DNA from: a virus
Lineage: Duplodnaviria > Caudoviricetes
IMG/VR virus record: IMGVR_UViG_3300042197_001846
Span: 1-58,579 of that record
DNA: 58,579 nucleotides
Direction: 5' to 3' (one strand)
Shown here: piece by piece, positions 591-51,714 of the stretch
Position numbering within the stretch: position 1 is the stretch's first letter
How the letters are laid out: each line of letters begins with the position of its first letter
Made by a program: the position numbers and the translations under genes
The notes under the pieces: model-generated
What the model was told of the DNA's origin: nothing
The model's database searches: none
Seen by the model: the letters and a program-made list of their open reading frames with translations, nothing else

Positions 591-831
591 CTGCTATCTC
601 TTGTTCACGCACGCCCATTGCTTCTAGTTGTTCTGGTAAATATATAGTATCAATACTATCTTCAAATTGTTTAATCTTTTCTATTGTAGCATAAACTTCT
701 TCTATAGTTGGGCAAGGTCTAGGATCTTCCCAGCGTGAAAAATAATTGTTGCTAATTTCCCAGCGTGCACCTGGTCTAAGCAGGTGCATTGCTGTGTCTA
801 TACCCATTAATCTATAAACCTTGGTTGTCAT
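577..831 (-). CDS. Small virion/fibre-associated protein (XkdW-like)
   Basis: 84 aa with ...LRPGARWEI...WEDPRPCPT; in operon after the Gly-rich protein. Confidence 0.45.
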   Translation of the reverse strand: MTTKVYRLMGIDTAMHLLRPGARWEISNNYFSRWEDPRPCPTIEEVYATIEKIKQFEDSIDTIYLPEQLEAMGVREQEIADAIK

Positions 832-839
832 ACTTGCTC

Positions 840-2468: not shown

Positions 2469-2842
2469 TATCCAATCTCCTCATAGCTGCAAACAATATT
2501 AATATCATTTGCTGTACCAGCTATAGCTCCTATACTGCGATCTTCTTCTAGGTAAATATAAGCATTTTTTTCAATAACTACTATACTTGCATCTGCTGGT
2601 ACTGTTATAGTACTACAAATTGGTGTTGCTGTGCCACCTAAACTGGCGGCACTATAGTAATTAATGGTTAATTCTGCATTTGTAACACCATTAACATTTA
2701 CTGCGTATAATGCATTTATTTTTAATACCTTGTTACTACTAGCACTGTTATTTACAATGCTAGTAGCTGAGGTTGTTGTTAACTTAACCGTAGCGGTTTT
2801 ACCATATATCGCAGTTGGCGATATTAAATTTGGTGCTGCCAT
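2468..2842 (-). CDS. Putative virion structural protein
   Basis: 124 aa, beta-rich, tightly coupled to both neighbours in the late operon. Confidence 0.55.
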   Translation of the reverse strand: MAAPNLISPTAIYGKTATVKLTTTSATSIVNNSASSNKVLKINALYAVNVNGVTNAELTINYYSAASLGGTATPICSTITVPADASIVVIEKNAYIYLEEDRSIGAIAGTANDINIVCSYEEIG

Positions 2843-2845
2843 CTA

Positions 2846-5800: not shown

Positions 5801-8800
5801 ACCTTGTGTACCTTGTGTACCTTGTGTACCTTGTAAACCTAGCAAGCCTTGAGTGCCCTGTGTACCTTGTGGTCCCTGAACACCTTGTGTACCTTGTAAA
5901 CCTACAGGACCTTGTTCACCTAAGATACCTTGTACGCCGTTTCTACCCTGTATGCCACGATCACCACGCTCGCCTTGTATGCCCTGAATGCCTAGGTCAC
6001 CTTGAACACCTTGAACACCTTGTACACCTTGTCCGGCAAACTGTCCATGTAAACCTTGAACACCTTGAACACCTTGTATACCTAAGTCACCTTGTATACC
6101 TTGTATACCTTGCGCAGCATACTCACCACGTAAACCTTGAGTACCCTGCGAACCAAAGTCTCCTTGTACGCCTTGCTGACCTTGAATACCTTGTGCAGCA
6201 TAAAGTCCGTCTAAGCCTTGAACACCTTGTGGACCTGGTAAGCCTTGTAATCCTAGGTTACCTTGTATACCTTGACCACCTGTTAATCCTATTGGTCCTG
6301 GTGGGCCACTAGTACCTTGTACACCGCGATCGCCTTGTGGTCCTTGCGGTCCTGTAGGGCCTATAGAACCTGTGCTGCCACTGTCACCTGCTGGACCTAT
6401 TGGGCCTTGCACACCTTGTATACCCTGTGCAGCATAAGCACCGTCTAAGCCTTGACTACCTTGTGTGCCTTGTATGCCGGTGCCTGGTATACCTTGAGTA
6501 CCCTGTATACCCTGTGCGGCAAACTCACCACGTAAACCTTGTGTACCTTGTAAACCTAGATCACCTTGTATACCCTGCAGGCCTTGTACGCCTTGTGCAG
6601 CATAGGCACCATCTAAACCTTGCACGCCTTGTATGCCGGTACCTGGAGTGCCTTGAACACCACCTGGACCTTGTATACCCTGCAGGCCCTTAATACCCTG
6701 CGGACCTTCAATCTTGCCTACATTAACCCAGTTAGTGCTAGACCATACCCATAAGTAACCTTGTACAATCCAACTATCACCTGGTGTAACATTTGTAGTT
6801 GGCAACTGTGCTGGACTATCTTTACTACCTTTAATAGTAAGTGTACCAGGATTAATACCACCAATTGTTGTGCCACTTGGTAGTGCAAGTCCAGTATCTG
6901 GATCATTGCTGATTGTAGCTCCACCTAGATCAATAGTAGTGCCGCTTAAGTACAAGTCTTTCCAGCGACGTGTAGGACTGCCTAGGTTAAATGCTTCATT
7001 AATACTAGGTACAATACTTTGAGCAACGTTAGCTAAGTCTACACCTGGTATACCTTGACTGCCTTTAGTACCTTGTGCACCTTGTGCACCTATTACACCG
7101 GCCGTACCTTGAATAGCTTGGCCTTGTACGCCTTGTATACCTTGACCAGCAAATAGTCCATGTAAACCTTGCGTACCTTGCACACCCTGCGTGCCCTGTG
7201 TGCCTTGTATACCCTGTGCAGCATATTGGCCTGCTAAGCCTTGTGTGCCTTGACCGCCTTGTACTCCTTGTAAACCCTGTGTAGCTTGTACTAATAGCTG
7301 CCAATATATTGTATTAGTTGCTCCACCAGAAAACTGTGGTGCTTCATTTTGGAACTCACCTTCATAGATCGATATGTAGCTGCCGCCATTATAGTAAACT
7401 GCATCGCCTGCAACATAAATTCTATTAGGATTAAATGTACCTGTCCAAATTAGTCCACGACCTACAGTACCTTGAGTACCTTGTATACCGCCAGGACCTT
7501 GAGCACCTTGAAATACTGCTGCTCCACTAGCACCTTGTGCACCAAATCCTGGTGGTCCTTGTAAGCCTTGCAAGCCTTGAACACCTTGTGCAGCATATTG
7601 ACCTGCAATACCTTGAGTACCACTTCCTGGAGGTCCTTGTACACCTTGTGGACCTTGTACACCTTGTGCAACAAATGCACCACTTAAACCTTGAGTACCT
7701 TGACTGCCTCGTGGTCCTGTTAAGCCAGCTTCTCCTGCTAAACCTTGTGTACCTTGTACACCTTGTCCAGCAAACTGACCTGCAATACCTTGAGTACCTT
7801 GTGCACCTGGACTACCTGGCTCACCTGGAGCACCTGCTTGACCGGCTGGTCCTGCTGGGCCTTGTGCACCTAAATAGGCACTACTACCACTTAGACCTTG
7901 TATACCTTGTACGCCACTGCCTTGTACACCTTGAAAACCTCTAGTACCTTGTATGCCTTGATTACCTGGACCACCTTGTACGCCTTGATAACCACGTATA
8001 CCTTGTGCAGCATAAGCACCGTCTAAGCCTTGTGGTCCTAGTCCTCCTTGTAGTCCAAATACACCTTGTATACCAGTTTGTCCTTGTGGACCTAGTCTAC
8101 CTTGAGTACCCTGAAAACCTTGTATACCACGCTCGCCTTGTATACCACGTTGACCTTGTATACCTTGACCAGCAAATTGTCCATGTAAACCTTGTGGACC
8201 AGGAGCTCCTTGAATACCGCGACCTTGTACGCCTTGTATACCTTGTGTACCTTGTAAGCCTTGACGACCTAGTAAGCCTTGTACACCTTGGCGTCCTTGT
8301 ACACCTTGATTACCTTGCACGCCTTGACCAGCAAACATACCGTGCAAGCCTTGGCTACCAGTTGTACCTTGTATACTACGGCCTTGAACGCCTTGAACGC
8401 CTTGAACACCCTGTAAACCTTGGAATCCACGTATACCTTGTATGCTAGTACCCTGCATACCTTGTGGTCCTTGACGTCCTTGCACACCTTGTCCGGCAAA
8501 CTGTCCGTGTAATCCCTGCGGACCTTGGCGACCTTGAATTCCTTGCATACCTTGTATGCCTGGCAATCCTTGTATGCCTTGTATACCCTGAAAACCTCTA
8601 GTGCCTTGTATGCCTTGAAAGCCTACAAAACCTTGTACACCTACGCCACCTTGTACACTAGCACCTTGTAAACCTTGTAAACCTTGAATACCTTGTGTGC
8701 CTTGTGCAACAGCACGATCCCAGCGACGATAATCTACATCAATATCATAGTTTTTATCATGGTGTACGCCAGGAACCCATGTAGGTGCAGTAAACGTAAT

Positions 8801-11800
8801 AGGACCATCTGCAGTTCCTGGAATACGTTGCACTCCTGGTACGTTTAGTAAGCCACTACCTGTTGGTGTGCCTGGTAAACTAATAACACCTATTGTTCTA
8901 GCAGTATTTTTAGCTAGTACAATTGCGCTACGACCTGTATGATAAGTTATGTTTTCACCAAGGTTATTTATATAGGTAGCATATATCTTATTATAAGAAA
9001 CTACATAGTATACATTACCTAATCCGGTGTATTCGTCTAGTAGTCCGCTGCCAGTATTAATACCAATAACATAGATTGGATCACCTGGAACGATATTTTC
9101 ATTTACAGGAGTATCAAACTCAATTTTACCAGTAGTATTTACAATGACAACATTATTAAGCGTATTAGAAATAAAAGTACTATTACTTACATACCAGCCA
9201 CCTTTATAACTGACTACGTCATAGCGTTTATACTGATTTTGTGGCAGCCACTCAGCACGCCATTCAAAACCAATACCCACTATACCTTGTACGCCTTGTA
9301 GTCCTTGTAGCCCCTGTAGTCCTTGTAGTCCCTGTGGTCCTTGTGTACCTTGTACACCTTGACCGGCATACATACCATGTAAACCTTGAGCACCTTGTAA
9401 ACCCTGAGTACCTTGTCTACCAGTAATACCTTGTAAACCTTGGTTATGACTAATACCATCTACACCTTGGAAGCCACGTAAGCCCTGCACGCCTTGCATG
9501 GTCATGCGCTGCCAATATAAGCCGTTTACAAATCCACCTGGATACTCTGGTATCTGTCCAAAGAATACGCCATAAGGCGGTACATTACTATTAGGCCAAA
9601 TTGCTATAAAGCTGCTGCCATTATAGTAAACTACGTCGTTTGCTTTGTAGTTAGCAGTAGTGTTATAATCACCACGCCATACAATGCTAAATCCCTGTAT
9701 ACCTTGTATGCCTTGTACACCTTGAATACCTTGTTCGCCCCGTGGCCCAGGAATACCTTGTATGCCTTGGACTCCACGATCTACTATTAGTTGCCAAAAT
9801 GCTGTATTAACTACGCCATCACTAATTTCAGGCGCTTCTTCTTGGAATGGAGTTGTATTTACACAAACAAATGCTTTTCCGCGATAGTATACTACGTCAT
9901 CTTTAACGTAACCAATATAAGTGTCACTATATGTACCACGGAATACAAAACCTTCACCTTTGAAACCTTGTAATCCTTCAAAACCTTGTGTGCCCTGTAT
10001 ACCCTGTATACCTTGTATACCCTGAGCATCAAATGCACCGCGTAACCCTTGTACACCTTGTACGCCCTGTACACCTTGGCTACTAATAACATTCCACATG
10101 CTATCAGTGAGCTCGCTGGGTACATTGTTCATGTTATTATCTATAACACTTACCCAGCTAGTACCGTTATATTGTACAGCATGATTTTTACTGTAGTTGG
10201 TAAACGGATCAAATTGACCACGCCAAACAAAACCAATACCTTGTACGCCTTGCAAGCCTATAGCAGCATAAGCACCGTCTAGACCTTGTACACCTTGTAA
10301 GCCTTGATCACCCTTTTCGCCAGTGTCACCTTTTTCGCCTACAAAGCCTTGTATACCTGTAAAACCTTGAATACTTTCGCCTTGTATACCTTGATTACCC
10401 TGTATACCTAAATCACCTTGTATACCAGTAAAACCTTGTAGGCCTTGGCTTGTTAGTCTGTTCCAGTAACCACTATTTACAACACCAGGACTAAATTCTG
10501 GCCCTTGTTCAAAAAACGCACCATTATAAACAGCAATAAAACTATCACCATCGTAGAAGACTACGTCATTTTTATAGTAAGTAACATCACTACTATAATC
10601 ACCACGCCATACAATACTATAGCCTTGAATACCTTGTAAACCCTGAGTACCTTGTATACCTTGTATACCTTGTAAGCCCTGGTTATGACTAATACCATCT
10701 AGACCTTGTAGACCTTGTAATCCTTGTAGGCCTTGTTCACCTTGTAAACCTTGTATGCCCTGTAAGCCTTGTAGTCCTTGCTCGCCTTGTATGCCTTGTA
10801 TTCCTACGTCGCCTTGAATACCTTGTAGGCCTTGAATACCTTGGATACCTTGCAGTCCTTGATCACCTTGTAGGCCTTGAATACCTTGAATACCCTGGGT
10901 GCCCTGCATGCCTTGTGCAGTTAGGCGATTCCAGTATGTGCTGTTTAATACACCTGGGCTAAACTCTGGTGCTTCTTCTTGAAATACGCCTGGATATACA
11001 CAAACAAAGCTATTACCATTAAAGTATACTACATCATTTAGTTTGTAGTATTTGGTAAAATCATAGTCGCCTTGCCAGTAAATACCACTACCTTGTGCAC
11101 CTTGAAGACCTTGCTGACCCTGGATACCTTGCATACCCTGAATACCTTGGTCGCCCTTATCACCAGTTCTAGCAAAGGTAATAATTATATCATCATTATT
11201 TACAAATGCAGCACCTGTAGCTGATAAATAGCTACACTCTACAGTATAGTAAGATCCAGTATCAACGATACTATTAATACTATACATAATAAAGGCTGTA
11301 CTAGTAGCCTTGTAACTAATTCTAAAATGGCCTTTAATTGTGCTAGTACTTTGTGCAATTGTAAATAAAAATTGCGCTATATTAAAAGGACCATCCTGCT
11401 CTTTGCTAATGTACATGCGTGTAGCATTAGCAAATGTGGTATTATTTAGGCGTAGTCGACCACTACCAGGATTGTCATCTGTGGTAGCATTATCAAACGT
11501 ATAATCAAAACTAGCACCGCCAAAACCACCAGTTAAACCTTGTGTGCCTTGTAGCCCTTGTACACCTTGTAATCCCTGTGTGCCTTGTGTACCCTGGCTA
11601 CCAGTATTAGCATAAAATAAGCTACAAATAGAACCATTGGTGCTACCACCAATCATATTTTGTGCTTTACCAGCTAAATATGTAACTGATAGCTTGTAGT
11701 AGATAATAGTAGGATCTATAGCATCTACTTCTTGCGTTAAACCAGTAACATTAAATATTAGATAATCGTTGTTTAATAGTACAGGATTTGTAGCGGCTGC

Positions 11801-13288
11801 ACTAAATACGTTATAGTCTGGCTGTATTACAAGTTGACCAGCAACTGGATGTGCAGGATTCTGTGTAAAATTACCAATCCAACCAGTAACATCAATACCT
11901 TCTAGTGAATTAGGATTGATTGTAATCTGTGTAATATTTTGTGGCGTAGAGGTTGGCAGTGAATTAAACTTAAAGCGTCCTGCTTCAGGTGCTTCGGTAA
12001 TATCCGTGCCTGTTTGGAATCTATAAAGAATACCAGCGCGAAAACCGCGGTTGCCTTGTATGCCTTGTACACCTTGTGTACCTTGTGGGCCTTGCGTACC
12101 TTGAACGCCTTGTAAGCCCTGTAGTCCCTGCACGCCTTGCGTACCCTGTGCCGAACTTAGGGTCCAGTAGCTGCTATTTAATACACCTAAATTAAGTTCA
12201 GGAGCTTCGCCTTGTGGTACACTTTGTATAGCTACAAAAGTGCTACCATTATAGCTAACGCTATCATTAAGTCCATAACTACCTGTGGACAAATAGCTGC
12301 CACGCCATGTAAGATTGCGACCTTGTATACCTTGTATACCTTGTATGCCGCCAACACCTTGATCACCAGCAGGAACAAATAGTACAGAAGTTATATCATT
12401 AAGGTCAATAACTCCACCGTGCCAAGTACCACTTAGGTAGTTGACATCTACTTTGTACCAATCGCCTTGATCTTCGGTGGCAACTACACTAAATACTGCT
12501 ATAGCTCCGCCAATACTTTCAGCAGCTTGAAATACTAGATGACCTTTTACGGGATTTTGAGTTTGATTCCAGCTCTCTATCCAACTTTCTTGATTGAGTC
12601 CAGTATGATCTACAATATCTAAATATACTTCGGTTACCAGTAAAAGATTATCGCTATTAAATCGTACACGACCAGTTCCTGGATCACTGGTACTTGTACT
12701 AGTAGACCACTGGTAGGGGACTCCGCCACGATAACCTATAGGACCACGTATACCTTGCGGTCCAGCAGGACCATAACCACCAACTCCTTGTGGGCCAAGT
12801 CCTCCAGGTAATCCTTGAGCTCCTTGTATACCTTGTGTACCTTGAACCATACGGTTCCAGTACAATACATTAGTTAGTATTGTTCCAGGATATTCAGGAC
12901 TTTCATTTTGTGTAGGATTTTCATTTATATAAATAAAGCTACTACCATTGTAGTAAACTACATCATTTTTATAATAAATAAAAGTGCTATTATAAGGACC
13001 GCGCCAAGTTACAGCTAGGCCTTGAGCTCCTTGAGCTCCTTGTAGTCCTTGTAGTCCTTGTAGTCCTTGTAGTCCTTGACGACCTTGTAACCCCTGAACT
13101 CCTTGCAATCCTTGTGGGCCTTGATAACCTTGAACACCTTGTCCGGCAAAGTCACCTGGAATACCTGGGTAACCTTGTACACCTTGTACGCCTTGGGGTC
13201 CTAGATAACCACCAACAATTACTTGTTGCTGAAGATCTTCAACAATTACTGTATTACCAGTAGATGTAACTACTGTTGTTGTAGTCAT
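2846..13288 (-). CDS. Giant collagen-like (Gly-X-Gln) fibre protein, 3480 aa
   Basis: Long G-X-Q triplet runs interrupted by repeated W(R/Q)G.Y...Y..ND.V.YNG.SF modules, a cupredoxin-like module and C-terminal YTYT.NG..TSF repeats. Confidence 0.85.
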
Positions 13289-43556: not shown

Positions 43557-43576
43557 GGTTTACTCCAATTTTTATG

Positions 43577-43606
43577 ATTGTAACACTAGTGGTGGTTTAG
43601 GGTCAA
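43577..43606 (-). promoter_or_regulatory. Putative terminase promoter TTGACC-N18-TACAAT overlapping a TGACCCTAAACC motif
   Basis: + strand ATTGTA 43577-43582 and GGTCAA 43601-43606. Confidence 0.55.
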
Positions 43607-43775
43607 GCATAGATTTTGGCACCTTAGCTTGTTTGGAAAAATTTCTTGAAGTACGCGTGTGGGAGGGCCCACCGCTATAGATTATATAATAGTCTGATAA
43701 CCGCCCCTGTCCACCTAAGTATAGCAGTAATCTTTCGGTTTTGTCAACTGCCACTCGTCGGCTGACAAACGGTAC

Positions 43776-43804
43776 TTGCTACTGCTGCTCGATAGACCTA
43801 TAAT
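43776..43804 (+). promoter_or_regulatory. Pre-early promoter TTGCTA-N17-TATAAT
   Basis: Directly upstream of the AGGAG RBS and the ATG at 43837. Confidence 0.7.
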
Positions 43805-43836
43805 AAAAACTCGATAAACAAACAGGAGTAGCTGAA

Positions 43837-44163
43837 ATGGCAACAGCCAAAGCCCCTAATTATAGCCCTGAGCAAACTGCTCAGATTGTAGAACAATACC
43901 AAGCCGGTGTTACGGTTGAGCAGATTGCCCAGACTATGGGCAGGACTGTTCGCTCAATTGTAGCGAAGCTCAGTCGTGAAAAGGTTTATATCGCTAAAGA
44001 ATATAAAACCAAGAACGGTGAAGCTCCCGTGAAAAAGGATGTTCACGCCGACTTCATCGGTGCTGCTCTCAAGCTCAGCGAGAACGATATAGAATCGTTA
44101 ACGAAGGCTAACAAGAGCGCACTTCGCGCAATCTCGGATTTTATCCGTAACTCTGCCAACTAG
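43837..44163 (+). CDS. T5 A2-like DNA-binding protein, copy 1
   Basis: NY.PEQT...Y.AG..VEQIA..MG.TVRSIVAKLSREKVY...SLTKANK; resembles T5 A2 (from memory); first gene after terS. Confidence 0.7.
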   Translation: MATAKAPNYSPEQTAQIVEQYQAGVTVEQIAQTMGRTVRSIVAKLSREKVYIAKEYKTKNGEAPVKKDVHADFIGAALKLSENDIESLTKANKSALRAISDFIRNSAN

Positions 44164-44196
44164 GGTATAGGGGGCGCAAGCCCCTATATAAATGTT

Positions 44197-44409
44197 ATGA
44201 AAAATGTAGCACTTGCCACTGATCCAAAAATTATAGCGTTCAATCGTCGAGCTGAAGTTGCCGTTGAGGAACCGTTACAGTTTTTTATTGTTCCCACTGA
44301 TTACAAAGGTTTCATGTGGCTTATAAAAAATAGAATCTTGGGCCGCAAGCTCACTGGGCCTAGCTATAATAAGCATTACAATACACTTACTGGATCAATG
44401 CAAGAATGA
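44197..44409 (+). CDS. Hypothetical protein
   Basis: 70-aa ORF after the hairpin at about 44169-44188. Confidence 0.45.
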   Translation: MKNVALATDPKIIAFNRRAEVAVEEPLQFFIVPTDYKGFMWLIKNRILGRKLTGPSYNKHYNTLTGSMQE

Positions 44410-44483
44410 GAACACTCACCCTAGCCCTGTGGCTGTACGTTATGTTTATGATAACATTCCTTGCACGCTACTGTTTCACGTGA
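44406..44483 (+). CDS. 25-aa hydrophobic peptide MRTLTLALWLYVMFMITFLARYCFT
   Basis: ATGA overlap with the upstream stop codon; one TM-like stretch; stop codon lies within parS1. Confidence 0.45.
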   Translation: MRTLTLALWLYVMFMITFLARYCFT

Positions 44484-44487
44484 AACA
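44472..44487. promoter_or_regulatory. parS: parS site 1, perfect TGTTTCACGTGAAACA
   Basis: Exact match to the canonical bacterial chromosomal parS palindrome, inside a 26-bp perfect palindrome (44467-44492). Confidence 0.8.
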
Positions 44488-44820
44488 GTAGCAGCTTATA
44501 AAAAATATACCGCTATATTTTTTATAGCGCAGGCGCCAAATTATAGCATATAATTTGCAACCGTGTCAAGCCCCAGAGCCGCCGTTTGTCGGGTAGGATC
44601 GACCGCTGGTCGGCTGATGTGTGGTAGACTGTGGGGGTATGGGTGGTAGGCAATTGTCGCTTGGGCGACATTTGACCTCAAAAATTCAGGTATACTTGTT
44701 TCTGTTGTAAGGCATGACTCTAGGCGGCCAGTAACCCCGCCTACCCTCGGATAGGGCCGATAGGGCAAGGGCAGACAAGTTAAACCTTACAACATTCTAG
44801 ACTTTATAAGGATATAGGTT

Positions 44821-45297
44821 ATGAAAAGGATAGCGATCTATGATATGGATGGCACAATCGTTTGCAGTATGCACAGGTATCGTACCATTGTTGATAACGG
44901 TATTGAGCGCATTGACCTCGACTACTGGCGTGCTAATGAATATCGCGCACTTGATGACAGTTTGTTACCACTTGCAGAACAATATAAAAACGATCTCGAT
45001 GATCCCCACTGTATTGTTGTTATTGCTACTGCCCGCATTTTGCGGAACGCTGATCGTGCATTTATTTATAGCAAACTAGGCACTCCCGATCATATCGTTA
45101 GCCGTAATGAAAATGATAACCGTTCTGGCGGTACTCTCAAGATTGAGGGACTAAAACGGATTTTCAAATTGTATAGCAATTTAGGTTATCATTTTAATGA
45201 CGCTGTATTTTATGAGGATAATGTAGCATATCTTAAAGCGGTTTGTGATTACTTTAACATTAGGGGCGTTTATGTTCCAAGCAAACAAGGACATTGA
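44821..45297 (+). CDS. HAD-superfamily phosphatase (PNK 3'-phosphatase/nucleotidase-like)
   Basis: IYDMDGTI (motif I), ATAR (II), K (III), YEDN (IV). Confidence 0.85.
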   Translation: MKRIAIYDMDGTIVCSMHRYRTIVDNGIERIDLDYWRANEYRALDDSLLPLAEQYKNDLDDPHCIVVIATARILRNADRAFIYSKLGTPDHIVSRNENDNRSGGTLKIEGLKRIFKLYSNLGYHFNDAVFYEDNVAYLKAVCDYFNIRGVYVPSKQGH

Positions 45298-45298
45298 T

Positions 45299-45469
45299 AT
45301 GGAAAATGTAGCAACCATTCGTGATAAGTTTATTGATCTTTATTATAACATTTATGGCTTTTATCCTAGCTTTGGCAGTTATAGGGATTGGAACGATCCT
45401 CAATGGCTAAATCGCATGTATGATAGCCTTTATAAAGAATATAACAGTTTACCAGAGGAATTAGTATGA
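45299..45469 (+). CDS. Hypothetical protein
   Basis: MENVATIRDKFIDLYY..., with AAGGA upstream. Confidence 0.55.
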   Translation: MENVATIRDKFIDLYYNIYGFYPSFGSYRDWNDPQWLNRMYDSLYKEYNSLPEELV

Positions 45470-45669
45470 GCGAGCAATATTGGAAAGACCTAGCCAACCG
45501 TTCTACGTTTTGGCATAAACTTGCTAGTCGCATGTTGTTAAAAAATGCAGAACGATATTTACAATGTTCTAGAAACGATATTAGTCGCGGCCACTTGGTA
45601 GGCGCTGAATTGTACCAAAAAATGGCACAGCGTAATCTTGCAATTTGGGATAGCTTGCACAAAGTTTAG
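45466..45669 (+). CDS. Hypothetical protein
   Basis: GAGG RBS and ATGA overlap with the upstream gene. Confidence 0.55.
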   Translation: MSEQYWKDLANRSTFWHKLASRMLLKNAERYLQCSRNDISRGHLVGAELYQKMAQRNLAIWDSLHKV

Positions 45670-45684
45670 GTTTCACGTGGAACA
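45669..45684. promoter_or_regulatory. parS: parS site 2, GGTTTCACGTGGAACA (reverse complement TGTTCCACGTGAAACC), plus adjacent half-site
   Basis: One mismatch to TGTTNCACGTGAAACA; GGTTCCACGT half-site at 45686-45695. Confidence 0.7.
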
Positions 45685-45917
45685 TGGTTCCACGTTATAA
45701 AAACCACACCGATATAAATTTTATATCGGTGGCGCCAAAAATTATACCATAATTTTTGCGGCCGTGTCAAGGCCTGCGGCGACCGTTCGTCGGCTGGTAG
45801 CTGCCGCTGGTCGGTCGGATGTGCGGCGGCCCCTAGCCGATGGACGGCGGCGAATTGTGGCACTATCTGGCATTTTATGGTATACTAGGGGTTGCTCAAC
45901 TTTTAAGGTTATAAATT

Positions 45918-46610
45918 ATGAAACGACAATACTTCGCTGTTCTAGATACTGAAACGACCATTAACGATACCGTTATGGATTTTGCCATTGTGGTTTGTGA
46001 CCGTCACGGCAAGATTTACAATAGTTGTAGCGTTCTAGTTCGTGAGTTCTATGATCCTGCTACACTGTTCCATGATAAAAATGCTAACGGTTTTTGGTCT
46101 AATGCTAACTTAGAGCGTCGTCGTGCTAATTATCAGAACATGCTAGATTCTGGTACACGTATGCTTGCGTCTGTAACTGCTATAAATAATTGGATCAATA
46201 AATGTATCGGTACTTATGATCCGATCCTTACTGCATACAATCTAGCTTTCGACTCTAGCAAATGCGCTAATTCTGGTATCGTTCTAGATTCTTTCACTAG
46301 CCGCTTTTGCCTTTGGCAAGCCGCTGTTGGCAATATCTGCCGTTCCAAAAAGTATAAGCGTTTTGTGCTCGACAATCATCGTTTCAATAATGCGACCGAT
46401 AAAGGTAATATGACGTTCAAGACTGATGCCGAGACTGTTGCAGGTTTTGTAACTGGTAATCTTATTACTGAGCCGCATACTGCGCTTGAAGATGCTAGAG
46501 ATTTCGAGATTCCAATCCTACAAAAAATTGTACGTTCTAAAGGTTGGCGCGATCGCATCGAACCCTATGACTGGAAAAAGTTTCAGGTAAAGGATCATTA
46601 CAATGTTTGA
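45918..46610 (+). CDS. DEDDh 3'-5' exonuclease
   Basis: VLDTETT (ExoI), AYNLAFD (ExoII), HTALEDA (ExoIII). Confidence 0.88.
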   Translation: MKRQYFAVLDTETTINDTVMDFAIVVCDRHGKIYNSCSVLVREFYDPATLFHDKNANGFWSNANLERRRANYQNMLDSGTRMLASVTAINNWINKCIGTYDPILTAYNLAFDSSKCANSGIVLDSFTSRFCLWQAAVGNICRSKKYKRFVLDNHRFNNATDKGNMTFKTDAETVAGFVTGNLITEPHTALEDARDFEIPILQKIVRSKGWRDRIEPYDWKKFQVKDHYNV

Positions 46611-46854
46611 AGCATTCGGCGTTCTAGGTTCTATACTGCTTGGGGCTTCGGCCCTGCCCCAAGCTGTCGAATCCTATCGTTCTAAAAATTCAGACGGGCT
46701 TACCTTAGGTTTTATAGCGATGTGGTGGATTGGTATGGTTTCCATGACAATCTATATCGTACCCAAGGGTGATATGATTCTTATAGCAAACTATATTGCC
46801 AATCTATTTCTTGTAACAATTATTGCGAGGTATAAATTATGGCCGATTCGTTGA
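46603..46854 (+). CDS. PQ-loop/SemiSWEET-like 3-TM protein
   Basis: G.LGS.LL...ALPQ...SYR.K.SDGLT.......W..G; three hydrophobic helices in 83 aa. Confidence 0.8.
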   Translation: MFEAFGVLGSILLGASALPQAVESYRSKNSDGLTLGFIAMWWIGMVSMTIYIVPKGDMILIANYIANLFLVTIIARYKLWPIR

Positions 46855-47228
46855 TAAAAGTTGTAACAGCCGCTGTTACCCTACACTGGACTGCTATGCA
46901 AGAATTATGGCCAGAACTAAAAAGGCATAGCGTTCCAAAAGTTAGAATTAGCAATCGCATGTATCGCACTGCGGGTTTAGCCCATTGCGAGGTGCATGAG
47001 GTAGAATTTGCTAGCAAATTCTTTAACCGTTATAAAGCTGAGATGCTTTGCGTTATTGTACCGCATGAGCTAATCCATGTTGCAGATTATATAATTAACG
47101 GCGAAGACCCTACCGACTTTTGGCATGGGCCTGATTGGCGTCGCATGATGCTAGAATATGGCTTGCCACCAAGTGCAACCCACGAATATTATATAAATAA
47201 AAACGAACCAATTGTGAGGACGTTATAG
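46839..47228 (+). CDS. SprT-like zinc metalloprotease
   Basis: SNRM.RTAG.A...VPHELIH...WHGPDWRRMM. Confidence 0.8.
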   Translation: MADSLIKVVTAAVTLHWTAMQELWPELKRHSVPKVRISNRMYRTAGLAHCEVHEVEFASKFFNRYKAEMLCVIVPHELIHVADYIINGEDPTDFWHGPDWRRMMLEYGLPPSATHEYYINKNEPIVRTL

Positions 47229-47529
47229 AAACAATAGCGGCGCAAGCCGCTATATTTTTTGCTATATCGCTCTAAGTTATAGAATTTATAGCGATGGCGC
47301 CAAAATTATGATATAATTATATCATAATTATTGTGCCCGTGTCAACCCCTTGGGGGTGCCGCTGGTCGGATGGTGTCTGCCGTTGGTCGGGTTGGGTTGC
47401 CGCTGATCCACCTGATGAATGGTAGGCCAATTGTCGCCGTGACGACAATCTACCAGGCAAACCCGTGTATAATAGATTCTGTTGCAGGGGACATGGGGTC
47501 GAATCTGCAACGGTTCTAGGAGTTATAGC

Positions 47530-47856
47530 ATGGCAGAAAAAGCCGTTAACTATACGCCTGAGCAAACTGCTAAGATTATAGCAGATTATCAGGCAGGGGT
47601 TGCCGTCGAGCAAATCGCTCAGGCAATGGGTAAAACCGTTCGTTCGATTGTAGCGAAACTTTCTCGTGAGAAAGTTTACGTTGCAAAACAGTACGTTACA
47701 AAAACTGGCGAAAAGCCTGTTAAAAAAGATGTAACGGCCGATGCGATCGGTGCGATCCTTCGCTTGTCAGAGAATGATATAGATTCTCTAACTAAGGCAA
47801 ACAAAAGCGCTCTCAAGGCGATTTTCGATGCCTTAGCAAACAGCAAACCGCTGTAA
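47530..47856 (+). CDS. T5 A2-like DNA-binding protein, copy 2
   Basis: AGGAG RBS and ATG at 47530; closely similar to 43837-44163 over its full 108 aa. Confidence 0.75.
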   Translation: MAEKAVNYTPEQTAKIIADYQAGVAVEQIAQAMGKTVRSIVAKLSREKVYVAKQYVTKTGEKPVKKDVTADAIGAILRLSENDIDSLTKANKSALKAIFDALANSKPL

Positions 47857-47909
47857 AAATCAGAGCGGCCTAAAAAGCCGCTCGTTCTAAACTCTAGAAA
47901 GGAACTGTT

Positions 47910-48224
47910 ATGGAAAAGATGACTAAAAATCAAAAGATTATCCGCAAAGATATATTGGCTTATGTGCGCGAGTGTGGCGGAATTGTTCACAGTCGCCCGC
48001 CCGTAGGCGATGAAAACGGGTTTTGCCTTGTTGCTATGCCTTGTGTGCTCAATCCACGTCATGCTAAATTTTATGACGTTGCATTTAGCTGGTGTGCTGA
48101 TAACGATAAGTTTGATCGCAAGATCGGAGAGTTCTTAGCCCTAGAGCGTTGGGTAAATCGTGAAACTACCAAGATGCCAGGTTATATAATTGATAACATG
48201 CTTGAAATGGATTTGGTAGACTAG
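47910..48224 (+). CDS. Hypothetical protein
   Basis: AAGGA RBS; followed by a terminator hairpin at about 48240-48267. Confidence 0.6.
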   Translation: MEKMTKNQKIIRKDILAYVRECGGIVHSRPPVGDENGFCLVAMPCVLNPRHAKFYDVAFSWCADNDKFDRKIGEFLALERWVNRETTKMPGYIIDNMLEMDLVD

Positions 48225-48658
48225 GGTTCTAGAAACTATAACGGCCCCCAAGCGGGCCGTTATTTTTCTGATAACGGTTATAAATTATAGAATTTGCACC
48301 GCTATAATTTTTATAGCGGCCGCGCCATTATACTAGTATAATGGCAGGCGTGTCAAGCGATTTTGCCGCCATTCATCGGCCCCTAACTGCCGCTTGTCGG
48401 GTCGGTTTTGGGTGTAATTGGGTATAGTTATGGTTATTATATTGTTATAAAAAACATAACAATCTTGCGCCAAAATTTTACCACAAAATTTTGGCCGCTG
48501 TCAAGCGATTTTGCCGCCGTTTATCGACCCTAAGCCGCCGCCTGTCGGGTAGTTTTCATAACGGTATAAAAAGCATAATCGTGCTAAATTCTATAAACCA
48601 TAACGATATAGACCCCATAACGATATAGGTTCTATAAACCAGCACACCCCTAGGTGTG

Positions 48659-48950
48659 CTGCGCCAGTGCAAAAACTCAAGTGCAAAACTTTGAGCTGGT
48701 CTGCGCCAACATTATAGTGGAAATCCTTGGGCCAAGTCAAGTAAGTTTTTCTGACCCTAAACCAGAGCAGGTTGCAAGCAGTCCCAAAAAAATTTGCCGC
48801 GGTTTAGGGTCAGGTTGCCACGACCACAAAAAATATTTACTTGCGCCAGTGCCTAATCTAGTGCAAAATCAAAATTTCTGTGGTCCTGCGCCAACATTAT
48901 AGTGCAAATCCTTGACACAAGTCAAGAGAATTTTTCTGACCCTAAACCGT
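48659..48950. repeat. 185-bp-period imperfect direct repeat (two copies)
   Basis: GCGCCAGTGC...CTGCGCCAACATTATAGTG.AAATCCTTG...AAGTCAAG...TTTTTCTGACCCTAAACC; ATTATA at 48711 and 48896. Confidence 0.85.
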
Positions 48951-49010
48951 AATAACCCACGGTCACGGGCAATAAAAAACCCTGCACAGGGCAGGGCTAT
49001 TTGTGTAGGA

Positions 49011-49331
49011 TTAAATCGATTTATCCAGTTTAGGGTCAAGTAATCGCCTGTTAAGTAAGATTAACACCGATTTATTCACCTTTTCTAGGCTTTCTAACTG
49101 ATCGCTGGGAACCCCCAATGTTTGGGCAAGTTGTTCGATATACTCCCACTTCTTTACCGGCACCTCGCCACGTTTGTTGAGGTACGTCTTTTTTTGGTAG
49201 ACACCCAAACTGGAGAGCTTGGCAATTATGCTACGGTCAGGGACGCCAAGAGTATTAGCAATCTCCAACGTAGTTGCTCCGCCTTTATATTGTTCAACAA
49301 TCTTATCTGTAATTTCTTTGGTATATTTCAT
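49011..49331 (-). CDS. A2-like DNA-binding protein, divergent copy 3
   Basis: KYT.E.T..IVEQY..G....EIA..LG...RSIIAKLS..GVY...GE.PVKK...SLEK.NKS.L. Confidence 0.7.
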   Translation of the reverse strand: MKYTKEITDKIVEQYKGGATTLEIANTLGVPDRSIIAKLSSLGVYQKKTYLNKRGEVPVKKWEYIEQLAQTLGVPSDQLESLEKVNKSVLILLNRRLLDPKLDKSI

Positions 49332-50732: not shown

Positions 50733-50762
50733 AAAACAAAAGCCCGCACAAGGCGGGCTTTT
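50733..50762 (-). terminator. Rho-independent (likely bidirectional) terminator
   Basis: AAAAGCCCGC-ACAAG-GCGGGCTTTT. Confidence 0.8.
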
Positions 50763-51700
50763 GAACTGTACATGTTTTTAGTTTAATGGCGGTGGATTGC
50801 TTTTATGTAGCGCTACTACGACCACCATACATCTTTGTCTACACTCTAGCTAGTTGCGAATTAGCGTAAGTCGGTGTAGGCGATGCCACGAACATCGGCT
50901 GTTCTTAGTTGCTGTTCGGTCTTGGGTTCCAGCCAAGATATGGGCAACTAGCGCGGGTAGGGTTTTCACCTACATTCCCCACTTAAGGGATGTTTGCTTA
51001 CAAAACCGCGACTAACCCAGGCTCTGGGGTCAGGCCTTGCCATTTATTGTTGGCGCACTGCCCTGTTAGGGCATAATCAGTATTTTATACTAGCTGCGGT
51101 ATTATCTGACTATACATAATACGCTAGACCCTAAACCGGATCGGTTGCCAGGCTAGAGGGCTTATTTCTAGCACACCTTTGCTCTGAGCACGTTTGAGCT
51201 ACTGGCATATTTGTTAACGACTGTCTACCCCACAGCTCCAGTTAACTACGGCTTGTGGCATGTAACCCTGAGTTCATTATCCAACTGGGTTGGCAAGAGG
51301 AATAGCTCAAGGACTGTAGTGGGTGGCCGCCATGCACTGTGGCAGAATCGGCTCCACTGGTTTCTAACTCTCGTGTTAGATAACGCATAACTACGTATAT
51401 GCTACGGTAACAGGTCTTTTGGTTAACCCCTATAACTGTTAACAAACTAGGGGGCTGGTTCCTTTAGGGTGGTTAGCAGCTTCCACCATAATGTATATCC
51501 GTTCCGCAGCAGGTCAGCTACGCAAGCTCGTTGGCCGCAGATTTCAACACATTTGTATAACCACCAAAAGGCATGGGGTCAAATCAGCAGTTATACAAAT
51601 AGGTTGAGGTGGGTCTGTGTTAAGGGTAAATTCAACACAGATTAAGAACTTATCCAACAGATTAGTGTTGGCCCTGGTTCGCCCTAAACTGTCACTCAAT
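50763..51700 (-). ncRNA. Candidate large structured ncRNA A (~940 nt)
   Basis: Bounded by promoter 51707-51735 and terminator 50733-50762; no credible ORF; many stems. Confidence 0.6.
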
Positions 51701-51714
51701 AATAATATTATACA

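Follow-up and report, generated by a model that had tools for sequence, protein, structure and literature searches.

Leftward sigma-70-type promoter sequences that face hairpins in the pre-early-like block of a T5-related phage

Results

Features of the locus

The window, the whole 58,579-nucleotide stretch that was analysed, contains between 44495 and 48740 five sites that carry TTGACA-18 bp-TATAAT on the minus strand, with TAAAAT as the -10 in the fifth (48475-48504). The -10 of each lies inside a perfect inverted repeat and is followed by (G)GCGC(C) and a hairpin (Table 1). These units run against the small plus-strand cassettes of a pre-early-like block and towards the packaging and structural genes, and each is placed immediately 5' (plus strand) of a cassette's head gene, back to back with the weaker rightward promoter of that cassette. 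The block encodes a homologue of the T5 pre-early protein Dmp, and the TerL proteins of this phage and of a Demerecviridae phage share 48% identity; because of these two matches, kinship with T5, as a distant relative, is supported.

An earlier note on this DNA had placed the leftward -10 elements inside inverted repeats, followed on the minus strand by a GC-rich TGGCGC and a hairpin, in two cases with a T-tract. All five palindromes were recovered where it had put them, TGGCGC and a hairpin lie downstream of 5/5 -10 boxes, and the T tracts belong to the hairpins at 45731-45707 and 44529-44511, both of which score as terminator-like on the minus strand. Its description of a GC-rich discriminator holds only in part: GGCGCC is present at about -3 to +3, and the discriminator proper is mostly T-rich (TTT/TTTT). 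Two further units (48711-48740 and 48896-48925) have the promoter without the palindrome. A CACGTGGAAC hairpin related to the palindrome IR0 was located at 45675-45695, and also after varied stop codons in 19 close relatives.

The pattern TTGACA-N16-19-TAWAAT gave six matches in the window against 0.19 expected, a number reached in 0/100 shuffles, and five of the six are the five sites, all on the minus strand. TTGAC-N19-TANAAT, with its 18-bp spacer, gave eight window matches where 0.22 were expected; every one is on the minus strand and within 43577-48925, and the best 11 sigma-70-like sites in 43.4-52.5 kb (11-12 of 12 positions) likewise occupy that strand without exception. Perfect inverted repeats, counted from an arm of 9 upwards and with loops of up to 7, numbered 14 in the 5.45 kb at 43557-49010, compared with nine in the remaining 53.1 kb and a mean of 0.19 when the 5.45 kb were shuffled. 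The promoter-hairpin pattern in the window is real and far above chance.

Table 1. Positions of the leftward units and neighbouring features in the window
Feature	Position	Strand	Details
IR0, perfect palindrome, 13-bp arms, GTTTCACGTGAAAC core	44467..44492		directly 3' of the stop of a 70-aa plus-strand ORF
Unit 1 hairpin (IR1), CGCTATA-N5-TATAGCG	44511..44529	-	terminator-like, 7 pairs, T-rich tail GTATATTTTT on minus strand
Unit 1	44532..44569	-	GGCGCC 44532-44537; inverted repeat over -10 44537-44557 (AAATTATA-GCA-TATAATTT, 44538-44556); TTGACA-18-TATAAT 44540-44569
GC-rich boxes CCGTTTGTCGG and CCGCTGGTCGG, 21 bp apart	44582..44613		between leftward -35 and rightward -10 of Dmp-like cassette
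Rightward -10 of Dmp-like cassette, TATACT	44691-44696	+	
Unit 2 hairpin (IR1), 12-bp arms	45707..45731	-	then TGGTTTTTAT on minus strand
Unit 2	45731..45770	-	GGCGCC 45731-45736; inverted repeat 45736-45758 (AAAAATTAT-ACC-ATAATTTTT, 45737-45757); TTGACA-18-TGgTATAAT 45741-45770
GC boxes CCGTTCGTCGG and CCGCTGGTCGG, 21 bp apart	45783..45814		upstream of rightward promoter of 230-aa gene
Rightward promoter of 230-aa gene, TGgTATACT	45857-45886	+	
Bidirectional terminator-like hairpin	47234..47253		after SprT-like gene; scored on both strands; likely 3' end of unit 3 leftward RNA
Unit 3	47296..47345	-	GGCGCC 47296-47301, 14 nt past the -10; 26-nt perfect palindrome 47304-47329; TTGACA-18-TATAAT 47316-47345
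GC boxes CCGCTGGTCGG and CCGTTGGTCGG, 21 bp apart	47359..47390		upstream of rightward -10 of HTH gene
Rightward -10 of HTH gene, TATAAT	47467-47472	+	
Unit 4 hairpin (IR1), CCGCTATAA-N3-TTATAGCGG	48299..48319	-	
Unit 4	48322..48356	-	GCGCCA 48322-48327; 22-nt perfect palindrome GCCATTATACTAGTATAATGGC 48324-48345; TTGACA-18-TATAAT 48327-48356; no gene on either side up to unit 5
Unit 5 hairpin (IR1), ATTGTTAT-N7-ATAACAAT	48441..48463	-	read from sequence
Unit 5	48467..48504	-	GCGCCA 48467-48472; inverted repeat GCCAAAATTTT-ACCAC-AAAATTTTGGC 48469-48495; TTGACA-18-TGgTAAAAT 48475-48504
Type-2 unit, no palindrome	48703..48740	-	GCGCCA and TTGACT-18-TATAAT; GTGGAAATCC in spacer
Second type-2 unit, beyond the range of the earlier note	48888..48925	-	TTGACT-18-TATAAT, spacer GTGCAAATCC, then G/GCGCAGG

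Conservation of the element among relatives

The window was compared with 76 related loci, and orientation was scored against local genes (the 230-aa gene). Promoters with an 18-bp spacer in this set were antisense to the 230-aa gene in 361 cases and sense in 21. The consensus of 304 unique copies, C-TTGACA-CGGCC-CAAAATTATA-TGG-TATAAT-TTTG-GCGCC, is also conserved at positions outside the selection pattern, namely the C before the -35, the CGGCC after it, the extended -10 TG and TTTGGCGCC; GGCGC follows the -10 in 269/302 copies. In a more distant lineage (L157) the spacer is 17 bp long and of different sequence, yet the -35 and -10 still match the consensus and both TTTGGCGC and the hairpin are kept, which points to selection on promoter function itself, and some relatives retain promoter, GGCGCC and hairpin with the palindrome over the -10 absent. 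The five sites and the two without a palindrome at 48.7-48.9 kb all represent one composite intergenic element of ~40 bp, which is common to a whole clade of uncultured, T5-related phages of about 100 kb. The comparison supports the view that the sigma-70-type promoter sequences of the units are real and under selection, and that they face leftward into hairpins and lack a gene.

The palindrome over the -10 and the downstream hairpin

Perfect arms of at least 8 bp were present in 199/281 unique cores, with an arm covering the -10 in 187 of these 199. When halves were swapped between copies, arms of this length were obtained in a mean of 61.5 (maximum 76); for arms of at least 10 bp, 130 were observed and a mean of 24.5 (maximum 36) was obtained in this control. 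Since the arms covary, these counts support a palindrome that is selected or actively maintained.

The region from +5 to +65 has a mean folding energy of -17.7 kcal/mol, compared with -8.5 for shuffles and -9.9 for an upstream control. A strong hairpin, a near-perfect and fast-changing palindrome, was found in 205/273 units, with 168 of the 205 stems perfect, and in 165 units it begins 0-5 nt past GGCGC. The stems contain 10 G-U pairs as leftward RNA and 20 as rightward RNA among 2423 pairs, and such near absence points to a DNA-level constraint or mechanism rather than to RNA structure. A common run of at least 9 nt was shared by 22% of 625 hairpin pairs within loci, against 4% of 344 pairs between loci, so that the hairpin families (CGCTATA..TATAGCG in the window, TGTTGC..GCAACA in L190, TGCCTA..TAGGCA in L181) are lineage-specific and common to the units of one genome; the loops are A5-6 or T5-6 in either orientation.

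Leftward terminator-like sites within 200 nt accompany 134/273 units, compared with 84/300 random windows. The hairpin RNA of ~40 nt that had been proposed suits a part of the units, two of those in the window among them, and not the whole set, a U-rich tail following the first hairpin in only 70/278; short hairpin RNAs from the units are plausible. In the plus sense the hairpin by GGCGCC has no U tract whatever, and it therefore cannot by itself end the mRNA of the upstream cassette.

The claim that no credible leftward gene follows was borne out: none was found downstream of the five window units. The 302 unique copies face opposite-strand ORFs (110), non-coding or mixed sequence (115), ambiguous sequence (63) or same-strand ORFs (14). 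In just seven units does an ORF of 60 aa or more, preceded by a ribosome-binding-like site, start within 155 nt; in our judgement the translations of these resemble non-coding read-outs, and no copy has a credible gene downstream.

Confinement to one block and reshuffling of cassettes

All 30 copies in the five near-complete relatives (5/5) lie within one block of 6-7 kb and in one orientation, and a control pattern gave 0 matches in these genomes. In 32 gene-order maps the gene next after a unit was an HTH gene (19), a Dmp-like gene (18), a SprT-like gene (18) or the 230-aa gene (15), and never the PQ-loop gene. Cassette order varies widely among relatives, with the cassettes always on the plus strand and the units always leftward. 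The 19 close relatives, with 90% or more identity in the 230-aa protein, combine two hairpin types with four promoter-palindrome variants and differing upstream genes. In contigs from a single RNA-library run, 47294 is joined to 45738 and 45771 to 44578, and the breakpoints coincide with GGCGCC and the -35 edge. Distinct gene-order junctions were about equally diverse without a unit (30/107) and with one (25/90), so dependence of the shuffling on the units is not shown.

Public RNA runs, represented by contigs that carry neither strand nor start sites, gave a depth over the units not above that of neighbouring genes. Libraries of this kind would in any case lose small RNAs. RNA-library contigs bridge units 1, 2 and 3; if RNA is their source, the units are crossed by some transcription on one of the two strands, and any insulation would be incomplete.

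Discussion

The units have a common architecture, conserved sequence and one orientation, are confined to one block, and show covariation and mosaicism. Beyond the earlier note, the analysis yielded a clade-wide element of ~40 bp, its position at the heads of shuffled cassettes and an analogue described in PMC2839356. As described there and in PMC4122927, the promoter-early stem-loop (PeSL) cassettes of T4-like phages combine strong sigma-70-like promoters with stem-loops, gather in hyperplastic regions and recombine with one another; according to PMC2839356 the stem-loop may overlap the -10 or sit just downstream. The units resemble these cassettes, except that here the promoter is reversed, away from the gene. 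The polymerase decoy, the roadblock and the cruciform signal for stepwise DNA entry that the earlier note had suggested found no support here.

The reading to which we give an even chance is that the units are genuine host sigma-70 promoters whose sole products are short hairpin RNAs and which serve both as boundaries between cassettes and as modules for recombination. A unit comprises, on the minus strand, a near-consensus promoter (C-TTGACA, 18-bp spacer, TGn-TATAAT), whose -10 and discriminator in most lineages form one arm of a 10-bp inverted repeat, then GGCGCC at about the start site and, within 0-5 nt, a near-perfect, fast-changing and lineage-typical palindrome with arms of ~11 bp. Once the DNA is in the cell, host RNA polymerase would bind these very strong promoters, start at GGCGCC, read only the palindrome and stop there or at the next terminator, and the product would be non-coding RNA some 35-100 nt long, of probably immaterial sequence. 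The hairpins, together with convergently firing or promoter-bound polymerase, may insulate a cassette from upstream read-through, and the ~40 conserved bp and the palindromes may serve as homology for cassette exchange, deletion and reordering. The model leaves both the strict reversed polarity and the covarying -10 palindrome unaccounted for.

Those palindromes could instead bind dimeric phage regulators, such as three paralogous A2/D5-like HTH proteins that match phrog_323 ('D5-like transcriptional regulator'), with the conserved -10 repeat and the lineage-specific one at +5 to +35 as candidate operators. Such promoters would fire at once on entry and shut off as the regulator accumulates, like Aca-repressed anti-CRISPR promoters; PMC6765145 describes Aca proteins that bind inverted-repeat operators of strong promoters. 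Hairpin families specific to a lineage yet common within a genome, loops in either orientation and stems without G-U bias suit such symmetric recognition of DNA. The arms over the -10, however, differ and covary among the units of one genome, which fits a structural constraint better than the half-site of one protein; usual operators are shorter and less exact than perfect arms of 11-20 bp, and the promoter controls no gene. We regard this reading as rather unlikely. It is improbable, too, that the gene-less, fast-cycling promoters capture host polymerase on new, linear, possibly nicked DNA, a constructive version of the 'decoy' of the earlier note, and feed it to the adjacent weak cassette promoter by post-termination sliding or high local concentration, or that negative supercoils behind the unit open that promoter. 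Sliding and re-initiation after termination are known, and divergent promoters can be activated by transcription-coupled supercoiling. The back-to-back arrangement with cassette promoters fits, as do a plus-strand -10-like element within 160 nt in 192/263 units, rightward window promoters with no good -35 (at best 9/12 positions), leftward promoters with every strength element, no product and an early hairpin, and a block that is likely the first-entering, pre-early-like region. Against it, the distance between promoters varies from 40 to >300 nt, there is no cassette that units 4 and 5 or the type-2 units could serve, short transcripts would give little torque, and genes of the phage itself would face competition from a pure sink.

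Two further readings seem very unlikely. A modified polymerase might run through the hairpins from a temporal promoter class, silencing the pre-early cassettes by antisense and feeding the 43-kb terminase and structural operon, much as at lambda pR'-tR' with the Q antiterminator. All units do point to the structural module, a single co-directional array starting at 43556, 139/273 have no recognisable leftward terminator within 200 nt, and sequence is conserved between -35 and -10, where the Q-binding element of lambda sits. T5 promoter classes, as described in PMC7472727, differ chiefly in the discriminator. Q-type antiterminator families were nevertheless found in 0/5 near-complete relatives, while control genomes responded (PF06530, PF03589); TerS has its own promoter (43606-43577), several units carry good leftward terminators, and a promoter with consensus -35 and -10 should act from the start of infection, not late. 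Equally doubtful is a role at the level of DNA, with GGCGCC and the perfect palindrome marking T5-type single-strand interruptions or entry cruciforms and the promoter secondary. The major nick consensus of T5 is given in PMC3517423 as R/GCGCRGG on one strand only, and all five major sites match it on the minus strand; 7/7 window units read TG/GCGC on one strand, and the unit at 48925 reads G/GCGCAGG. The T5 nick in the injection-stop region has a GGATTTGCAC repeat before it and a perfect palindrome directly after, GTG[CG][AG]AATCC is confined within the window to the two type-2 spacers and is present nine times in T5 9753-10478, and the stems form perfect palindromes of Watson-Crick pairs. 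Each of the remaining four T5 nick sites, however, lacks both promoter and palindrome, the shared R/GCGC is merely 5 nt, similarity to the T5 first-step region is not significant (best E 0.34), DnaA-box pairs, a mark of the T5 injection-stop region, are missing, and assemblies cannot reveal nicks.

A whole group of uncultured phages shares a conserved design in which repeated, near-perfect host-type promoter sequences, turned backwards and without genes, separate the likely earliest gene cassettes.

Genome context and the pre-early-like block

The window, an entire IMG/VR virus record of 58.6 kb (completeness estimate, 56%), carries a long co-directional structural module followed by a set of small plus-strand genes, after which minus-strand genes start again at 49.0 kb; the coordinates of these and the other features discussed here are collected in the table. 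Its TerL shares 48% identity with that of Salmonella phage KKP 3953 (Demerecviridae, T5-like). A 158-aa HAD protein encoded among the small genes aligned with the pre-early protein Dmp of T5 (30% identity over 81 aa, E 7e-11), and because of its gene content, including this homologue, the block resembles what a distant relative of T5 would have as its pre-early region. A weak match to T5 A2 (E 0.067) was obtained with the HTH proteins.

The first two HTH genes share 70% identity over 220 nt, and the HTH family stands at the head of a cassette in nearly all relatives, the uncultured members of this clade. The 230-aa protein was conserved in all 76 related loci and had no match in Pfam and none among cultured phages. 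Its N-terminus, FAVLDTETT, is similar to the Exo I motif known from 3'-5' exonucleases of the DnaQ type. The 3480-aa ORF is like a virion RNA polymerase in size and unlike one in its matches.

Features in and around the pre-early-like block (window positions)
Feature	Position	Strand	Remarks
Structural module, co-directional	1-43556	-	includes TerS, TerL, portal, protease-capsid fusion, major tail protein and 3480-aa collagen-like fibre
3480-aa ORF	2846-13288	-	dozens of collagen-like and tail-fibre repeat matches
Small genes	43.8-48.3 kb	+	two of three HTH paralogs, Dmp-like HAD, 230-aa, PQ-loop, SprT-like
HTH paralogs, 106-108 aa	43837-44163 (+), 47530-47856 (+), 49011-49331 (-)		match to phrog_323 'D5-like' regulator
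230-aa protein	45918-46610	+	
Units 1-5	44532-44569, 45731-45770, 47296-47345, 48322-48356, 48467-48504	-	
Type-2 units	48703-48740, 48888-48925	-	
CACGTG hairpin	44467-44492, 45675-45695		
GC-rich box pairs, CCGYYYRTCGR (mostly CCG-N5-CGG)	44582-44613, 45783-45814, 47359-47390, 48369-48400, 48517-48548		
12-mer GTTTAGGGTCA(A/G)	43595, 48755, 48802, 48940, 49028, 50440		both orientations; also at 5.8-8.1 kb in L071
Candidate structured RNA	50735-51705	-	
Candidate RNA promoter, TTGAAA-17-TATAAT	51735-51707	-	leftward; second copy at 51965-51937 in a 53-nt direct repeat
Candidate RNA intrinsic terminator	50763-50737	-	

Promoter-hairpin units in the window

Each unit consists of a minus-strand promoter (TTGACA, 18-bp spacer, TATAAT), GGCGCC and a hairpin. 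Five palindromes had been described in an earlier note as enclosing leftward -10 elements; all were present where it placed them, a minus-strand TATAAT (TAAAAT in one case) lies inside each at 18 bp past TTGACA, and TGGCGC and a hairpin follow each of the five -10 boxes, with a T tract in two of these hairpins. The promoter pattern TTGACA-N16-19-TAWAAT matched six times in the window against 0.19 expected, with five of the six matches at these sites. When the spacer was fixed at 18 bp, eight matches were obtained (0.22 expected), every one on the minus strand between 43577 and 48925, and the best 11 promoter scores in 43.4-52.5 kb fell on the minus strand without exception. Perfect inverted repeats numbered 14 in 5.45 kb and 9 in the remaining 53.1 kb, approximately a 15-fold difference in density, compared with 0.19 in shuffles. 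The units are very probably genuine sigma-70 promoters. A bidirectional promoter was also considered and was rejected, the plus-strand copy of TATAAT having neither a -35 nor a TG.

Conservation in related genomes

A motif scan of IMG/VR identified a 101.6-kb relative, L071, with five copies, and 76 related loci were gathered using the 230-aa protein (53-99% identity). Promoters with an 18-bp spacer in these loci and the window were antisense to the 230-aa gene in 361 cases and sense in 21. The consensus from 304 unique copies was C-TTGACA-CGgcC-cAAAaTTaTa-TGg-TATAAT-TTtG-GCgCc; since only the two hexamers had been used for selection, the conservation of other positions means that it reaches well past them. 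This consensus in itself forms an inverted repeat of 10 bp, with its centre at the TG of the extended -10. Five near-complete relatives (CheckV 96-100%) contained 30 copies (6, 6, 5, 7 and 6), all of which lay in a single 6-7 kb block in one orientation, and a reversed control pattern gave zero matches in the same genomes; in one near-complete record the unit block spans the contig ends. The block has constant borders, with TerS on one side and a minus-strand pair of an HTH gene and a 256-aa gene on the other. As DNA queries, the 4.6-kb region returned nothing among cultured phages and a single 47-nt unit returned chance-level matches only. No paper on backward, gene-less promoter-hairpin arrays in T5-like phages was found in the freely readable literature, supplements aside, which does not prove that there is none.

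Palindrome over the -10 element

The inverted repeat containing the TATAAT of a unit is distinct from the hairpin just after GGCGCC. Perfect arms of at least 8 bp were found in 199 of 281 unique cores, with the -10 covered in 187 of these, and arms of at least 10 bp in 130 of the 281. A half-swap control (200 permutations) gave 61.5 (maximum 76) and 24.5 (maximum 36), respectively; the observed counts exceed these controls, and the arms are therefore matched within each copy. This test was used instead of a fixed-register covariation test, which gave a modest signal only. The arms vary among the units of a single genome with their complementarity kept. In the other cores, which include the two palindrome-less (type-2) units of the window, the arms are at most 6 bp long. 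L157, from a distant lineage with a 124-kb genome, has a 17-bp spacer and no palindrome; both consensus hexamers, TTTGGCGC and the hairpin are retained. The palindrome, missing there while the rest of the unit is kept, is thus a lineage feature, and the core found throughout comprises promoter, GGCGC(C) and hairpin.

GGCGC, hairpins and predicted transcripts

Of 302 copies, 269 have the start of GGCGC 0-4 nt past the -10, 12 have it 13-14 nt past, and 21 have no GGCGC; the 0-4 nt spacing places it at about -3 to +3. The mean folding energy of the next 60 nt (+5 to +65) was -17.7 kcal/mol, whereas shuffled sequences averaged -8.5 and control sequences from upstream -9.9. A strong hairpin was found in 205 of 273 units, beginning 0-5 nt past GGCGC in 165 units, with a median stem of 11 bp that was perfect in 168 of the 205; stem mismatches were rare, with no G-U bias on either strand (10, 20 and, for other mismatches, 20 among 2423 pairs). 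Hairpin sequence is lineage-typical and common to the units of one genome (at least 9 consecutive nt are shared by 22% of the 625 pairs within a locus and by 4% of the 344 pairs between loci), and it is hypervariable even where the proteins of relatives are 97-99% identical.

A U-rich tail was present on 70 of 278 first hairpins only. Leftward terminator-like sites lay within 200 nt in 134 of 273 units, versus 84 of 300 random windows, and within about 75 nt in 83 units. Read in the plus sense, the hairpin beside GGCGCC lacks a U tract; a terminator-like site of some kind in that sense lay within 200 nt of 110 of the 273 units. Units 1-3 of the window have leftward terminator-like sites, and in our reading of the sequence a leftward RNA from unit 4 would run into the plus-strand terminator hairpin at 48238-48263. 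From the terminator-like sites and hairpins downstream of the window units, leftward RNAs of approximately 35-100 nt are predicted.

The statement in the earlier note that no credible leftward gene follows these promoters held for the clade as a whole: copies face opposite-strand ORFs in 110 of 302 cases, non-coding or mixed sequence in 115, ambiguous sequence in 63 and same-strand ORFs in 14, and seven ORF candidates with a ribosome-binding-like site were judged to be noise. An Rfam search of 43-53 kb gave no match near any gathering score. The units do not fit a trans-acting small RNA gene, which would have a conserved RNA sequence between promoter and terminator, the hairpin there being hypervariable. 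The idea that the hairpin RNAs mimic CRISPR repeats was dropped, given that hairpins differ among the units of one genome; an attC-like role, as in integrons, was also considered and had no support.

Expression data were taken from Logan contigs of RNA libraries, which do not show strand or start sites; the runs were wastewater, riverine and freshwater metagenomes with small word shares. Contigs span units 1, 2 and 3 (X13 records 2, 4 and 7), so that, if they are RNA-derived, some transcript crosses these units. Contig depth over the units was not raised, and the uncovered stretches at 43.5-43.8 kb and 48.3-50.7 kb were kept out of the evidence. The contig data are neutral on short RNAs, neither for nor against.

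Cassettes and mosaicism

Gene order was mapped in 36 cases, of which 32 were analysed after removal of three order-duplicates and one map near-identical to the window. The gene next after a unit was most often HTH (19), Dmp-like (18), SprT-like (18) or 230-aa (15), another unit followed in 15 cases, and a PQ-loop gene directly after a unit was seen in none of the 32 maps. Some genes stayed paired, for example SprT-like with a family Ag gene after it and no intervening unit (17 of 19), and 230-aa with PQ-loop next (14 of 14). Cassette order differs widely among relatives; the cassettes are always on the plus strand and the units always point leftward.

The unit ahead of the 230-aa gene is a mosaic in 19 close relatives, where two hairpin types (10 and 9 loci) pair with four promoter-palindrome variants and several upstream genes; these sub-parts were compared by direct inspection, naive clustering having proved noisy. 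Contigs from one metatranscriptome run contained the joints 47294-45738 and 45771-44578, in which the change of partner falls exactly at GGCGCC and at the -35 edge. Junction diversity did not set the units apart (30 distinct among 107 junctions without a unit versus 25 among 90 with one), and this equality counts against a special role of units in shuffling. A histogram of homology breakpoints mostly followed gene boundaries and was uninformative.

A second conserved hairpin, around CACGTG (GTTTCACGTGAAAC, CACGTGGAAC..GTTCCACGTG), was observed at two sites in the window and in 19 close relatives, right after the stop codons of different upstream genes and before the variable hairpin.

Other elements near the block

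Each leftward -35 has a pair of GC-rich boxes, spaced by exactly 21 bp, directly upstream of it. In 14 close relatives the boxes do not vary while their flanks do, and L071 lacks them. RNAalifold predicted 24 pairs in the GC-rich leader of 14 relatives, none with a compensatory change, so the boxes look like sites for a lineage-specific DNA-binding protein, not RNA structure. One copy of the 12-mer (TTTAGGGTCA / GTTTAGGGTCA(A/G)) forms the -35 (TTGACC) of a promoter at 43606-43577 just upstream of TerS. The 12-mer is abundant in L071 and is probably the operator of a conserved structural-operon regulator.

Also noted on the minus strand was a candidate large non-coding RNA (about 970 nt), structured and very abundant. 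Its stretch has no ORF longer than 67 aa and no Rfam family match, and folds at -313.6 kcal/mol (shuffles, -278.3 +/- 6.2; z = -5.7). Its depth in three metatranscriptome runs was approximately 300-10,000, versus roughly 5-30 in most bins over the 43.8-48.3 kb genes, where depth is the sum over all contigs at least 90% alike and other organisms may contribute. Relatives have it at 76-92% identity and show an indel (51207-51313, about 108 nt); RNA contigs skip the same stretch.

Comparison with known systems

In phage lambda, pR'-tR' is a strong late promoter that fires into a terminator to give a short gene-less RNA (6S RNA) and is subject to Q antitermination. The units are similar in having a gene-less promoter directed into a hairpin and conserved sequence between -35 and -10, and differ in that lambda has one copy compared with 5-7 units and that most unit hairpins are not terminators. 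The Q antiterminator families PF06530 and PF03589 were found in none of five near-complete relatives, while controls responded in E. coli, and their absence weakens control of the lambda Q type.

The early promoters of phage N4 are DNA hairpin promoters used by a virion RNA polymerase. They share with the units short perfect inverted repeats, loops of about 3 nt and a place among the early promoters of a lytic phage, and by analogy a dependence on supercoiling is plausible for the units as well. The units differ from them in carrying a full sigma-70 -35 and extended -10 consensus. A search for the T7-like polymerase domain PF00940 was negative in all five relatives, a weak result as the control genomes were silent too. 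Hairpin promoters of the N4 type were excluded on the basis of the full sigma-70 consensus, the failure to find a virion polymerase and the tail-fibre/collagen-like nature of the 3480-aa ORF. Horwitz and Loeb in 1988 reportedly obtained, as a selected laboratory construct, a promoter regulated by superhelix-induced extrusion of a cruciform at the -10. There too the -10 lies within a short, AT-rich, perfect inverted repeat whose extrusion would remove the promoter; the repeat in the units, in contrast, is natural, multi-copy and covarying, and is missing in one lineage that retains the rest of the unit.

Promoter-early stem-loop cassettes (PeSLs) are described by Arbiol et al. 2010 (PMC2839356) and Comeau et al. 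2014 (PMC4122927) as small cassettes with a strong sigma-70-like promoter and a stem-loop that cluster in the hyperplastic regions of T4-like phages and recombine with one another; the stem-loop may overlap either box, occupy the space between them or follow closely after the -10 (PMC2839356). Recombination between PeSLs reorders the genes they flank or cuts them out as mini-circles, and the stem-loop ends transcription that arrives from upstream. The units likewise combine a repeated, intergenic sigma-70-consensus promoter with a stable stem-loop over the -10 or just downstream, and form dense clusters in a plastic small-gene region where the flanked cassettes vary in order and content; crossovers, which in PeSLs map within the motif, may do so in the units too, where variant joints at unit edges and mosaic sub-parts were observed. 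The PeSL promoter drives a downstream ORFan, whereas the unit promoter points away from the cassette and towards no gene, with same-strand ORFs ahead of 14 of 302 units and seven weak ORF candidates. Further differences are that the units sit in a T5-related genome (as judged by TerL and the Dmp homologue) instead of a T4-like myovirus, have a conserved GGCGCC between two palindromes, and have beside the start site a hairpin that, read in the direction of the upstream genes, lacks a U tract. The PeSL is the closest published kind of element, with polarity as the decisive difference.

The first-step region of T5 is described in section 15 of Davison (bioRxiv 10.1101/866236) as crowded with repeats and palindromes. 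The window resembles T5 in its pre-early-type block with a Dmp homologue, many inverted repeats and palindromes and a GTGCAAATCC-type repeat, and in R/GCGC beside a palindrome on one strand. Unlike the injection-stop region of T5, which lies at the inner end of a dmp-bearing pre-early block and has DnaA-box pairs in inverted repeats, the block is without such pairs (DnaA boxes, TTWTNCACA: 4 in the window versus 8.9 expected, none in 43.5-49 kb), and the strong pre-early promoters of T5, in contrast to the units, drive genes. When the unit region was compared with T5 1-12 kb by BLAST, the best E was 0.34, thus no detectable DNA homology, and a scan of the first 12 kb of T5 found no promoter-GGCGC-hairpin units. 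The nick consensus of T5 is given in PMC3517423 as R/GCGCRGG, on one strand only. All five major T5 nick sites match it, and the injection-stop nick is located between a GGATTTGCAC repeat and a perfect palindrome. R/GCGC is present in 7 of 7 window units on the minus strand only, with the full 8-mer solely at the 48925 unit, and the clade consensus is G/GCGCC. The type-2 units read GGATTT(C/G)CAC-TATAATGTTG/GCGCAG, and the 10-mer GTG[CG][AG]AATCC is, within the window, confined to them. Promoter classes of T5 differ chiefly in the discriminator, according to PMC7472727, and by analogy the conserved TTTGGCGCC may mark a temporal class.

Interpretation

The reading adopted here is that the units give short non-coding transcripts and are modules that bound cassettes and recombine, which makes them PeSL analogues of reversed polarity. 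It has about an even chance of being right, since it infers that the units are transcribed, that they insulate and that they help to cause shuffling, and it does not explain the strict polarity, the covarying palindrome or the DNA-like perfection of the hairpins. Four alternatives share the remaining probability: operator control, a landing pad for polymerase or a pump for supercoiling, read-through at late times, and DNA signals for nicks or cruciforms.

It is also conceivable, if unlikely, that the units are cis-acting devices of the first minutes of a T5-type infection, serving polymerase capture, the supply of supercoils or polymerase, a cruciform valve and possibly nick or recombination sites. 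In that case, host polymerase would be caught by gene-less, fast-cycling consensus promoters on first-step DNA, which is linear and nicked and which gyrase is unable to supercoil. By firing away from the cassette, these would give its weak promoter, located behind them, local negative supercoils or locally recycled polymerase. The covarying -10 palindrome would serve as a safety valve by forming a cruciform, and GGCGCC with the perfect hairpin may coincide with strand interruptions of the T5 type and so create recombination hot spots.

T5-like phages are a classic system in which the transcription, protection and stopping of the first-entering DNA are still unsolved. An uncultured branch of the T5 group has 5-7 copies per genome of a gene-less promoter as good as any in E. 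coli, each amid covarying palindromes and heading a mobile gene cassette. If the units serve only as boundary and recombination modules, the PeSL idea would extend from T4-like to T5-like phages, and the promoter could point in a direction that is of no use to the gene beside it. If instead their function lies in being transcribed or in binding polymerase, the units would be a natural example of promoters that act mechanically on DNA or manage polymerase. Under both views they are very strong promoter-hairpin modules, compact and portable.
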